Source: Octopus vulgaris (Eukaryota). From it: a stretch of 64,000 nucleotides of DNA. The stretch is from contig OX597836.1 of the NCBI GenBank assembly GCA_951406725.2, positions 5,456,001-5,520,000 of the forward strand, read 5' to 3'. A model generated the notes under the pieces. The model did no database searches. It saw only the letters and a program-made list of their open reading frames with translations, and was not told the DNA's origin. Every line of letters begins with the position of its first letter. Within the stretch, counting starts at the first letter, position 1. The translations under genes were made by a program, and so were the position numbers. This document shows, piece by piece, positions 22,558 through 57,434 of this stretch.

Positions 22558-22895
22558 TCTTAGGAAATGTTATTTATATATACACGTATACGTATTAGAT
22601 TCCTATCTCCCCTCCCTGAAGAATGAGGCTCAATTTTTCCACTATATATTTCTTCCCATTACGGGTTGCAGTATATATGTATCTATGTATGTATGCATGT
22701 ATGTGTGTATGTATGAATGTATATATATATATATATATATATATATATATATATATATATATATATATATATATATATATATATATATATATATATATAG
22801 TTAATCCAAACATGAAAGCACAAAAAACACAACAGCGCGAGGACGTGGAAAAAATATAGTATTATTGGACGCTCAGGAAAGAAGGAAAGAAGGGG

Positions 22896-22932
22896 TGTTT
22901 AACGTTTCGAGCAAAGCTCTTCATCGGAAACA
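22896..22932 (-). ncRNA. Minimal hammerhead-like motif, family H copy 1
   Basis: Minus TGTTT-CCGATGA-A-GAGC-TTT-GCTC-GAAA-CG-TT-AAACA: 5 bp helix I, 4 bp helix II, palindromic ACGT helix III. Confidence 0.7.
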
Positions 22933-25105
22933 TATATATATATATATGTATATATATATATGCATATATATAAATGTATATAAATATATGCATATGTATG
23001 TATATATATATATATATATATATATATATATATATATATATATATATATATATATATATATATATATATAACCATACACCGAAACATACACACACATATA
23101 TATATAAGCATATGAGTAGACGTTTCCGTTGCTTTTAAATCTGTAAGAAATGACAAAATCTTCCTTAAGTCACATCACGCCATCTTCAAAAGAGAAAGAA
23201 ATAAACGTTGCTAATGTAATTCTAAATACTTTATCACCGAAAGTACAAGATATACGCAGCTGGAACACTTTTCAACAGACGTACAATATCTCAGTGAGCC
23301 ACAGCTAAATAATTGAGACATGTGATCAAATATGCTTTCACCAATTTGCACAAACCTATTTAGAAATAGTTTGGCAAATTCTGCAATAACGTAACGTAAT
23401 TAAGAGTTGAAAATCTTTTTCTATTGTACATTCCGATATAGGTTTCCATTTCACAGCCGTCTGCAGATGCCCAGCATGAAACACAATACGTGGTCTTAAA
23501 CATTATTCTCTGTGAAGTCAGCAGTTCGTGTATAGTGATTTTAATGTGATTATTAAACTTTTACTTTGATTAAGTCGATAAATTTGATGTCTATTCGATC
23601 ATATGTTAACAGAGAATGTCTACTGTTATTTTGTCAGAATTTGTTGAAAAGTTTCCAAGCTTATACAAATGTATACGAGCGAACGTAAATCATACAGGTA
23701 CACGAATTTAAAGACACACACACGCATATATAAATATATATATATATTTGTATGCATGTGTGTGTATATGTACATAAACACATACGTGTATATATATATA
23801 TATATATATATATATATATATATATATATTTATATACATATATATGTGTAAATAAAGTTCCTGTATACATATATAAACACACATATATATACGTACATAT
23901 ATGTATACATGTACACACACATACACATACATACATATATATATATATATATATATATATATATAGAGAGAGAGAGAGAGAGAGAGAGAGAGTATATATA
24001 TGCGTACATATATATGTCTGTATGAATGTATATGTATGTATATATACAGGCAAACACACTCGCGTGCCATACACGCGCGTATACGTATATACCGGCTTTA
24101 AACAAGATCGGTAAAACTCCAAACTTTCGTATACTCTATAGAAATTATATTTGGTTTAGCGAAAGAAAATTAATATAAATTATTTGAAATCAATAATGAA
24201 TTTTTTTTCTGAGGAAAGTAAAGCAAATTCAAATATATATTTTTAATAAGTGATAATAATTCTGTAATATATAACACGACAAATTTAGTTTGGAATTACA
24301 TATAGATACAACATAGAGATAGAAATAGAGAGTTTGTGTAATTTATGAGAATTTTTAGAAAAGGTAAATATAATATGAAACATATTTGTTATACATGGAT
24401 ATGTATCCAAAGAACATAAAACTTTACAAGGATGTGATAACAAATTATTATTTAGAATGATAAAAAAATACAATTAAATATAAATTTAATATAGTGACAC
24501 AGAATTATATTTATTTATATAAAGACACACGTAGAAGCACAGACACAAAAACCCCCATATATATATATATATATATATATATATATATATATATATATGC
24601 GTGTGTGTGTATACGTATATATATGTACACAGATATACATATATATACATATATATATATGTATGCATATATACACGTACGTATCGATGTATGTGTGTGT
24701 ATACGAATATACACACAGAGGGATATAGTTAGAAGGATAGACACTTATATGAGAGTTGGTTGTGAACATGGTGTAAATATGAAAACGTAATATATATACG
24801 AAAGCCCAAACCAAACAAAATATACAAGCAAATACACACAGACACACAGACACACACAACACAAATACACATATCCATATTCATCACTGTATGTCTGACT
24901 ATCTACATTTGTATCTCTCACGTTCTCTTACACACCACTCTCTATCCCTATATATATACATACATATATATATATATGTACACGCATACATATATATATA
25001 TATATATGTATATATAGTTTGAATTTACAGAAAAACAAAAGACGAAGAAAGGTGTATAAACAAGAAACAGGTATATTTGTTTGGCGCTCGACAATGTGAG
25101 AAAGT

Positions 25106-25141
25106 CTTTTACGTTTCGAGTCTACGCTCTTCAGCAGAAAG
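25106..25141 (-). ncRNA. Minimal hammerhead-like motif, family H copy 2
   Basis: Minus CTTT-CTGCTGA-A-GAG-CGTAGA-CTC-GAAA-CG-TA-AAAG. Confidence 0.6.
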
Positions 25142-25154
25142 GAACACCAAGAAA

Positions 25155-25371
25155 TAAGCCATTTAAAAACAAACAAAAACCGTTAGATTCACTTCAACAG
25201 TAAAATGTAACTTGCCAAAAAATTTTCGTCGCTTTGAGACCGTGAACTGTTCACTAGCTTGGAGTTTTGTCAGTGAACAGATCGCGATCTCAAGCTACGA
25301 AAATATTTTGGCACATTAAATTCAAATGTTGAAGTGAATCTAACGGTTTTTGTTTGTTTTTAAATGGCTTA
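25155..25371. mobile_element. Fold-back MITE-like element
   Basis: Perfect ~45 bp inverted arms TAAGCCATTTAAAAACAAACAAAAACCGTTAGATTCACTTCAACA / TGTTGAAGTGAATCTAACGGTTTTTGTTTGTTTTTAAATGGCTTA, with imperfect pairing continuing almost to the centre. Confidence 0.88.
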
Positions 25372-54372: not shown

Positions 54373-54410
54373 CCTTTCTGTGGAAGAGCATATGCTCGAA
54401 ACATTAAAGG
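54373..54410 (+). ncRNA. Minimal hammerhead-like motif, family H copy 3
   Basis: CCTTT-CTGTGGA-A-GAGC-ATAT-GCTC-GAAA-CA-TT-AAAGG: 5 bp helix I, 4 bp helix II. Confidence 0.6.
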
Positions 54411-54963
54411 CGGCTCGTTTCACTTCCCGAGCGTTAAACTAATATATATGTTTGTTGTCTACACCACCTGTTTTTTTTTTTGTGAATTTTCTCCACCTTC
54501 TATATATATATATACATATATATATATATATATATATATATATCATAGATAGATAGATAGATAGATAGATAGATAGATAGATAAATTTAAAGCGGTTACC
54601 CTGTTTCACGTCCATATTGCTCTTAGCTTTACGTTGTTTTATCAGAATTCGAAAACGTTTGGCCTATGGCCACTCTAGCAAGTGGCCGCTCTAGAAAATG
54701 GAGACTTCGTTACTCTGTCAACGATACGAAATACTCTTCCTTTGCCCGCTATTCCTAATTGTGCCTAATAGCGCGTGAATCCCAGAATCCCAGCAGGAAT
54801 TTCCAAAAAGAGCAAGACTATCCAGTAATTAAATTCGTTCACGGTCTTACTTCATGCCTGACAAATTATTGAACCGGCGTGCTTTAAGCAGACAGGAAAA
54901 GGAACGCAAACCTCACACCGGAGTACTTTTGAAGAAATTTGACAATCTTCTATTTATTTATTA

Positions 54964-55370
54964 CTAGCAGTATCGCTCGGCGTTGCTCGGGTTCGTAAGG
55001 GAAATAACCATGTAAGCATTTTTAGAGATGTAAAGTATAATAGCCATCTCAATATGGCTAACCACAAAGGGGGGGGGTGTTGCTGTAGCTTTTTACGTTC
55101 TGAATTTTTCTGAATTTTTACGTTCTCTAAATTTTTAGAGAGTTACTTCCCTTATATATGCGAAAAGTACACTAAAAATGGGAAAAATTGATGGTAATTT
55201 TGTTTCAATCGTAGACTCATCGCAGACGCGCGCTAATACCCAGAAGGGCTCGATATAAATCACGACTATAAGATACCCGAATTTGGTTAAACTGCACCGC
55301 AAAATGTGGGAGTAGTTAGGAATCTAAATCGTAGGAGACAGACACACAACTTGACTTTTATATATAAAGA
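54964..55370 (-). mobile_element. Complete non-autonomous Helitron-like element
   Basis: Minus 5' TCTTTATATATAAAA, 3' CCCGAGCAACGCCGAGCGATACTGCTAG; A/T flanks. Confidence 0.85.
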
Positions 55371-55531
55371 TATTCTAATTATATATTTTTATTTATTTAT
55401 TTATTTATTTATCTGCATTGCAGTGCTCAATCAGTAACAGCTGACTAACATTGCTGAAGCCACTTCAGCAAACAAACGACACACATACTGTCCGACAGAC
55501 ATTTCTTCCTTCTTTGGATCTTTTCCCCTAT

Positions 55532-55560
55532 CCGACGAAGAGCTATGCTCAAAACTTCAA
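55532..55560 (+). ncRNA. Degenerate hammerhead-like motif, family H copy 4
   Basis: CCGACGA-A-GAGC-TAT-GCTC-AAAA-CT-TC; downstream GAGCATCAAACAAATAC shared with the other copies. Confidence 0.5.
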
Positions 55561-57434
55561 AACCTTTCTCTTTTTATTGAGCATCAAACAAATACAATCC
55601 ATATTCTAGCTTGTTATTGATATTTCTAGTGATCGCTCATTCTATTTGACAATGGAACAACAGGTAAAGCGTTGAAGAGAACCAAGAACCATGTTGACGG
55701 AAACTAGCCTTCTTACCACACGGACACGCTCGTCTTTTTGTCTCCGTATGAATATGTATGTATGTATGTATGTATGTATGTATATATATATATACATATA
55801 TATATATATATATATATATATATATATATATATATATATATATAATACATACATATATATATACATATATGTGTGTGTATGTATGTATGTATGTATACAT
55901 ATATATGAATATATATATATATATATATATATATATATATATATATTGCATGTATGTTTATATGCGTGACTGCGTGTGTATAAATAAGTATATGCATATA
56001 TATATCCATATATTTATATATGTATGAATATAAATACATATACATATCAATATAAATATATATGTATATATATATATATATATATATATATATATATATA
56101 TGTATATAAATATAAAAATAAATAAATAAATATATATAAAAAGAAAGCATCATTCGAACTATCATTTCCATGGTATCAATCTGTAATGTTCGACTTCAGA
56201 AGAGTGGACAGTCTGCTTTTAGTAGCTATTATCAATATCGATTGCCTCATTTGTGATTGGTTATTGCAGACTTCGAGCTGAGGATTAATCTTGTGCGTTC
56301 TTCATAATCTGTCTCCCACGCGTTAATTGTTTTCAAATGCTTACTTTTCAAAGTATACAGACATACTTACATATCTACATCAATCTATACACCCATAAAT
56401 ATATAAGTACACATGCATGTATATATGTAGGTATGTATGTGTAAGTGCATATATATATATATATATATATATATATATACACACATATGTATCTTTATAT
56501 ATGTATATGCATATATGCGTGAATGTGTATCAGTGCGTGAGTTTGCGTTGATATATAAGTATATGGTCTCATATAAAGGTGTATATATACATGTGTATAT
56601 ATATATATATATATATATATATATATATATATATATGTATATATATGTATATATATACATTCATATATATATATATATATTTACATACGCATGTACACAC
56701 ATACACATACACACATACAACGTTATCGAGACAGCGTTTCATGAGTAAAATGAATTTTCTCCTTCCTCCTTGTTTTAATTTTCGGTTACTTTTTTTTTGT
56801 TCAGTTTTTGCTTTGGCCATTCTTCTTCTTACGTAATCGAACATTAACGCGACTGGTTATTTTCTTATCAGCTCCACTTGGCGAATTCAATTGCGCTGTT
56901 GTCTTTACCGTTCTAGTTTCCGAACTTGCGAAACGGAGACTAAAATCGCGTAAAATCATAACAAAAACGAGCGAAAATAACCAAAAGAAATACCGAAAAC
57001 GACAGCAGCAACTGCAAGAACAACATTACTAGCCACAGCAATGACCACAACAACAGTAACAAGAAGAGCAAATAAGAAAACATGATCTCCGAGGATAATC
57101 CGCATACCGAAAAATCGTCGGCCCACCACATCCATCAAACCGGATGCTTTTCTGACTTCATCATTCAAGTTCCGACATCGTCAACGACGCTACGACCAAC
57201 ATCCTCATCGTCTTCCTACCTCCCACTCCAACATCCCCTCCTCTTCATCATCATCACCATCGTCATCATCATCCTCGTCATCATCGTTATCATTGGTGCT
57301 AGGGGTAGAAAGAAGCAGTATAAGAGGAGAAACCTTGAATTTCTCGAATACTCGAATATATGGCATTCATCATTGCTCTCTCTTGAATCAAGAACTCGTG
57401 TAAAATAGTCACGCTTTTCCTTTCTAGCTAGACT

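Follow-up and report, generated by a model that had tools for sequence, protein, structure and literature searches.

What are the four short, mutually related elements that lie scattered through a 64-kb stretch of the Octopus vulgaris genome (contig OX597836.1, positions 5,456,001 to 5,520,000; hereafter the window), and are the unusual letters in the hammerhead ribozyme fold that they carry inherited or the product of decay? The window is AT-rich animal DNA, crowded with microsatellites and short repeats, and a preliminary description made from the letters alone had recognized in it a dispersed family of elements (here family A, copies e1 to e4) with a variant minimal hammerhead. In the present study, family A is probably best explained as truncated stubs from a Neptune-like Penelope-like element (PLE), and specifically from its 3' terminal repeat (pLTR); the source subfamilies would already have had altered ribozyme cores.

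First, the four copies were located where they had been described (Table 1), and a profile built from three copies recovered the fourth in each case (E values of 1.6e-9, 1.7e-15, 2.1e-14 and 1.6e-8, and thus at most 1.6e-8; best non-family match, E 0.4), at a pairwise identity of 65-78%. No fifth copy was found in the window. The abutment of three copies on (TA)n tracts was also confirmed, and the 3' ends of e1, e2 and e3 are in register at (TA)n, 128, 121 and 123 nt behind the cytosine at core position 3 (C3), respectively, a proximity to such a tract reached at chance level by approximately 3% of non-TA bases. The 5' ends vary and lie approximately 5 (e1), 17 (e2), at least 40 (e3) and approximately 30 (e4) nt before C3. 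No target-site duplication is discernible for family A, the ends of which sit within microsatellite. That e4 extends as far as the microsatellite at 55752 is not supported, as 199 of 1538 control windows reached its score.

Table 1. Positions of the family A and family B features in the window (position 1 is the first letter of the window)
Feature	Positions	Strand	Core (positions)	Core position 3	Predicted cut	Remarks
e1 (family A)	22800..22932	-	CCGAUGA, U4C (22927-22921)	22927	after 22901	stub beginning at helix I; (TA)n on either side; extra A, intact helix II, GAAA, ACGU palindrome
Distal GAGC of e1	22871..22874	-				complementary to helix II 3' strand plus G12
e2 (family A)	25017..25154	-	CUGCUGA, A6C (25137-25131)	25137	after 25110	stub; ends 3' at (TA)n and borders B2 on its 5' side; G-to-A at 25121 disrupts one helix II pair; ACGU palindrome
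e3 (family A)	54310..54500	+	CUGUGGA, A6U (54378-54384)	54378		longest stub; (TA)n tract begins at 54501; 5' edge uncertain, family-like sequence to ~54340; helix I of 5 bp; palindrome lost (ACAU)
e4 (family A)	55500..55632	+	CCGACGA, U4C (55532-55538)	55532		most decayed; no adjoining (TA)n; edges approximate; G12A; helices I and III broken
B1 with tail (family B)	25266..25420	+	G3 U4 G5 A6 A7 C8 A9 (25273-25279)			direct copy
B2 (family B)	25155..25259	-	GUGAACA (25254-25248)			inverted, 5'-truncated; head to head with B1
B0 (family B)	22432..22559	+	GAGACCA			decayed core; G3 and C8 kept
Inverted 3' piece (family B)	22299..22418	-				head to head with B0; runs into (GA)n/(TA)n tract

Second, the fold of family A has the layout of the minimal hammerhead of PLEs, for which the published consensus reads NNN CUGANGAH G...C GAAAN palindrome NU H NNN (PMC4209133). 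In that work, Cervera and De la Pena 2014 listed among the conserved features a nucleotide placed between 9 and 10.1 and a palindrome at 15.2/16.2, and described the copies as mostly solitary and probably derived from truncated PLEs (PMC4209133). The copies of family A are likewise solitary and of type I, with a short helix I and a palindrome lacking loop III. C3-G8, an unpaired A between A9 and G10.1, the G10.1-C11.1 pair, and U16.1 with H17 are retained in all four; GAAA is retained in three (e4 reads AAAA); and the 5' flank is U-rich, as in the consensus. The reduction of helix III to the ACGU palindrome (15.2/16.2) in two copies was confirmed for e1 and e2. As both belong to the published PLE consensus, neither the extra A nor ACGU is unusual, and the suggestion that the A after A9 is decay or a variant core is not borne out. 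Helix II and the CGUC end are nearly identical to those of the Acropora digitifera Neptune row in Fig. S3 of PMC4209133.

The core itself departs from the published forms. All 56 rows of that figure (PMC4209133) show CUGANGA or a U3 variant, whereas U4C, A6C and A6U are observed here, with a G3:C8 pair in a neighbouring family. The canonical core (or its U3-A8 form) occurs in none of the four copies, and the canonical descriptor is without a match in the window. A descriptor composed after inspecting the copies matches e1 to e3 only (mean of 0.017 matches in 60 shuffles). Judged by its letters, family A would thus be a PLE minimal hammerhead in layout that fails the strict core and is placed as a variant. 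The comparison with Rfam that the preliminary description had proposed yielded no support, as none of the hammerhead models matched e1, e2 or e3 in local scans at E up to 10, and none appeared among the 150 of 496 whole-window matches listed, the top ones being microsatellite or hairpin artefacts. Other details of that description fared unevenly. The varying helix II loops (TTT, GTAG, ATAT and TAT) and the downstream GAGC, present in all four copies, were as reported, and the shared pattern GCTC-GAAA-CG-TH is complete in one copy of the four, as e2 has ACTC, e3 has CA, and e4 has both AAAA and CT. The covariation claimed for helix I is weak in the window: helix I is paired in three copies, e4, which the claim had omitted, pairs at only 2 of 5 positions, and the covariation consists of two pairs, both owed to e1, a level reached by 56 of 500 shuffles. 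The outer two letters of helix I in e1 contact the (TA)n tract. When 11 hand-picked outgroup loci were added, 0 of 500 shuffles reached the count of cells changed on both sides in this selected set. The overall identification is judged right, namely that a retroelement family associated with (TA)n carries a minimal type I hammerhead of the PLE kind.

Third, loci with the same motif in metagenome contigs link it to PLE proteins. The scan used only the word helix II-GAAACGT, with no constraint on the core or on helix I, and gave at least 120 loci; the 120 listed, of about 350 stretches, represent 111 distinct contexts. Among the 76 AT-rich contexts, the core reads CTGANGA in 33 and CCGANGA in 25, and among the 35 GC-rich contexts in none; 38 of these 58 core-matching contexts also form a helix I of at least three pairs. 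The main outgroup family resembles the Acropora digitifera Neptune row (PMC4209133, Fig. S3). One locus, L068, shows an RVT_1 match (E 5e-8) with a CxxC-CxxC linker and a GIY-YIG-like end upstream of the motif; its near-complete PLE reverse transcriptase (RT) and GIY-YIG region (L068:2079-3627, minus strand, two frames) is followed, approximately 680 nt downstream, by a minimal hammerhead with the canonical core. Endonuclease remnants were observed at nine outgroup loci, and most loci are bare stubs. In the U4C loci L009, L089 and L106, the motif follows an endonuclease end at approximately 110 nt, and this end is the one also found at the U4 loci L105 and L118; with the motif at this distance behind GIY-YIG ends, 5'-truncated PLE stubs fit best. 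Several of L009, L089, L106 and some 20 further U4C loci carry an inverted hammerhead copy just upstream.

The setting of family A agrees with published descriptions of the endonuclease-positive clades Neptune, Hydra and Naiad, in which (TA)n targeting, 5' truncation and an inverted 5' copy with a tail have been reported (Craig et al. 2021, PMC8557442). Family A shares with them the (TA)n sites, the extensive 5' truncation and a hammerhead close to the 3' end, and the inverted copy with a tail is found in the neighbouring family B. In contrast to these clades, no open reading frame (ORF) of such an element was found in the window (150 of 237 filtered ORFs searched), and Naiads are described as being without canonical hammerheads (PMC8557442). 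The hammerhead of Hydra-1_Obim has a canonical core and helices other than those of family A (PMC8557442), and the words of families A and B were without a match in the searched parts of the PMC8557442 supplement.

Herein, we propose that each of the four copies arose when the pLTR of an endonuclease-positive PLE that targets (TA)n and is most like Neptune was inserted with its 5' part missing, at least two subfamilies being represented. Following the enzymology of the PLE literature, the PLE protein would nick AT-rich DNA and reverse-transcribe from a fixed point approximately 120 nt behind the hammerhead, and synthesis, usually stopping early, would leave stubs of the kind observed, fixed at (TA)n on the 3' side and ragged on the 5' side. 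Since loop III is absent from the observed layout, any cutting would have to occur in a dimer held together by the ACGU palindrome, the self-duplex of which amounts to only -1.7 kcal/mol. The source subfamilies would have carried a pyrimidine at position 6, as supported for the e2 type, or C4, as shown in an outgroup subfamily and, by inference, in e1 and e4. The spread of such slowed cores would be possible because insertion does not require cleavage: in an anole PLE, hammerhead catalytic mutants had no effect on insertion in vitro (PMC11167929). The four genomic copies are probably inert.

The best of the alternatives, which we nevertheless consider unlikely, is a dedicated non-autonomous family in which short master copies consisting of the pLTR only are mobilized in trans by a PLE. 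The absence of a coding remnant beside any of the four copies and the very high abundance in contigs are consistent with such a family; moreover, pLTR sequences are sufficient for trans mobilization in a rotifer (PMC3846280), and non-autonomous elements of the Chlamys type that form pLTRs are known (PMC8557442). However, the 5' ends differ among the copies, and nine endonuclease-bearing outgroup loci amid a majority of bare stubs are what random truncation would be expected to produce. The fixed 3' ends, ragged 5' ends and outgroup loci therefore favour truncation of an autonomous element, and the absence of RT and GIY-YIG beside the four copies is expected for stubs; no such domain was found in the window by Pfam among 150 of the 237 filtered ORFs. 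A (TA)n retroelement, as the preliminary description had it, is supported, and the dedicated non-autonomy that it added is only possible. A tRNA-derived short interspersed element with a hammerhead finds no support either: the internal B box of RNA polymerase III (consensus, one mismatch) gave 8 matches in the window against a chance mean of 4.1, none in or near e1 to e4. The family words were without a match in the viral contigs and prokaryote genomes searched.

Still less likely is a canonical CUGANGA source from which all changes at positions 4 and 6 arose by decay after insertion. The copies are old, being only 65-78% alike, and show private damage at 25121 and, in e4, at G12; e2 and e3 have unlike letters at both positions 6 and 7, and most contig depth is unscored through the core. 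These observations fit decay, but all four copies deviate, and they do so in two matching pairs (C4 twice and a pyrimidine at position 6 twice). For position 4, U4C tracks the tail in one outgroup family of 54 contexts, with C3C4 in 24 of 26 contexts of one tail type versus 0 of 19 of the other, and one of the remaining nine tail-unassigned contexts reads CC. U4C is a fixed subfamily letter in this outgroup PLE, and e1 and e4 may have inherited C4 from a subfamily of this kind. For position 6, the contigs of four runs under three organism labels were aligned to 25030-25430 at 80% likeness. The numbers of fitting contigs were 10423, 7599, 6942 and, in run X21, which may be RNA and whose contigs carry no information on expression, 1705, with a summed contig depth, which is not a copy number, of up to 2.6 million versus 25-45 in unique flank (X1). 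The e2-like family is clearly very abundant and is present under three organism labels, and run X1 may come from the source of the window itself. If A6 were canonical, a G>T at 25134 would be expected; as G>T is tallied at two places in each of X1, X9 and X21, and these are 25200 and 25207, A6 represents less than 5% of depth in these three of the four runs. G>C was observed at one place, 25064. Position 6 of the e2-like subfamily is thus supported as C or U, the two not being distinguished in this comparison. The ACTC of e2 is private, since 25121 differs from 91% of contig depth in X1, and the AAAA of e4 (G12A) is probably private decay as well. Taken together, positions 4 and 6 seem more likely to have changed in whole subfamilies than through decay of single copies. 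Where decay or a variant core had been left as alternatives, the variant is favoured for these two positions and decay for ACTC and AAAA.

A non-LTR retrozyme (LTR, long terminal repeat), with tandem hammerhead repeats giving rise to circular RNA, is very improbable: such elements are also short, non-coding, PLE-related carriers of type I hammerheads (PMC7229834; bioRxiv 10.64898/2026.07.22.740005) and derive from PLE pLTRs (bioRxiv 10.64898/2026.07.22.740005), but they are tandem and mostly contain canonical hammerheads in repeats of 170-400 nt (PMC7229834), whereas the motif of family A is minimal and its copies stand singly at scattered places, their 3' ends fixed at (TA)n, with 1154 and 2210 nt separating same-strand neighbours, which are of differing types. 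No tandem unit was found, a tandem search of 54200-56000 showing only microsatellites, and no circle junction at the predicted cut site was present among the 15 of 29 contig joints listed.

Several observations weigh against the proposal of truncated Neptune-like stubs with inherited cores. The link to an autonomous PLE would be one of analogy: no PLE protein remnant was found in the window (Pfam on 150 of 237 filtered ORFs; best tblastn match, E 1.0), and the outgroup loci, picked by a family A word, have only the hammerhead in common with family A and not the tail, a family A tail being absent from the 120 of about 350 metagenome stretches. No inverted 5' copy lies beside any family A element in the window, although this feature is optional in PLEs. 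The outgroup tail types were defined after inspection, and some contexts are perhaps the same locus. The change at position 6 is without outgroup support, as A6 is retained in 72 of the 76 AT-rich contexts, and it therefore looks lineage-specific. In addition, the A6 figure is taken from tallies with 25 rows unlisted and is reference-biased to e2-like contigs; X5 has one further G>T place of unlisted position; and in X1, depth drops from 2.57 million in helix II to 0.75 million in the core, so that approximately 70% does not run through the core. The contig alignment was made on copy e2, with the e1 and e4 types outside it and other subfamilies under-sampled.

A neighbouring family, B, shows a different core change. 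B1 has the hammerhead layout, with an extra G and a palindromic AAUAUU, and the family is characterized by helix I TTTGTCA/TG(A/G)CAAA, the core GUGAACA, a helix II of five pairs in the majority form, and GAAA. G3 and C8 are present in all three copies; G>C at 25273 is under 5% in the contigs of each of the four runs, and an A/G split at 25311 preserves pairing with U. A G3:C8 descriptor matched no single family B copy, all three being decayed. A head-to-head pair with a tail is seen twice in family B, and an inverted head-to-head copy with a tail has been described as a hallmark of PLEs (PMC3846280). Family B is a second PLE-like family and arguably a more striking variant than family A. In the literature searched, G3:C8 appears only as an engineered rescue (PMC11167929, PMC3884650), and Lunse et al. 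2017 may list variants. Families A and B adjoin twice, abutting at 25155 and lying approximately 240 nt apart at 22560-22800, which perhaps reflects a shared preference for AT-rich sites.

Truncated PLE ends with minimal hammerheads have been on record since 2014, and the extra A and ACGU are already published; the unusual point is that the altered core letters are seemingly subfamily-wide. The CUGCUGA core of e2 is the same as that of the A6C hammerhead of phage Bcep176 (PMC3088659; PMC7151607), a single phage ribozyme with stable helices, whereas e2 belongs to a high-copy animal repeat with a minimal, putatively dimer-dependent fold known from sequence. The natural A6C phage hammerhead is slow in Mg2+ (PMC3088659), and one ribozyme with the CUGCUGA core cleaved more than 10,000-fold better in Mn2+ than in Mg2+ at 300 uM (PMC7151607). 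U4C has been described as lowering activity in vitro and still allowing viroid infectivity. The role of the hammerhead in endonuclease-positive PLEs is unsettled (PMC8557442), and subfamilies that became very abundant with cores known to be slow in Mg2+ would provide evidence from nature bearing on this question. The compensatory G3:C8 pair of family B points in the opposite direction, toward selection on the catalytic fold; in the anole PLE, cleavage required the element protein, and C3G/G8C gave partial rescue (PMC11167929). A bolder hypothesis, to which we assign a low probability, is that several very high-copy PLE subfamilies of this animal lineage have amplified with rewired cores (C6 or U6, C4, and G3:C8), the folds of which are still selected, with C6 cutting only in the presence of Mn2+ or the element protein and the distal GAGC, paired with the helix II 3' strand and G12, holding the ribozyme off until reverse transcription or the binding of a protein releases it. 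Canonical descriptors and Rfam overlook motifs of this type and so undercount the hammerheads of the genomes that carry them.

The distal GAGC is invariant and lies 28-34 nt behind G12 in e1 to e4. Pairing of this motif with the helix II 3' strand and G12 is possible in all four copies, with 5-7 pairs, and the pair at G12 is G-U, G-C, G-C and A-U in e1 to e4, respectively. This blocking helix is the RNAalifold consensus at a level that 262 of 500 shuffles match and that is therefore not significant, and it loses to helix II in e1 and e3, with a probability of at most 0.01; the modelled blocking helix may serve as a lead only. The distal motif as the cleaved strand in cis was considered and dropped, as complete pairing of helix III together with helix I is not achieved in e1, e3 or e4 and, in e2, breaks down at A15.1.

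Other repeats of the window were also recorded. An abundant family resembling short interspersed nuclear elements, of approximately 400 nt with copies 70-93% alike, is found at 4142-4543, 31203-31671, 39236-39615, 39739-40045, 44168-44503 and 49444-50130, among other places. A second abundant short repeat family of approximately 220 nt, with copies up to 91% alike, occurs at 15215-15418, 17705-17933, 21325-21551, 37837-38264, 47937-48342 and 51624-51833, among others. A DNA transposase fragment with a weak DDE_3 match (E 7e-5) lies at 63345-63620 on the plus strand, a further transposase fragment, Tc1-like by eye only, lies at 10731-11147 on the minus strand, and an imperfect palindrome of 97 nt occupies 6477-6573.

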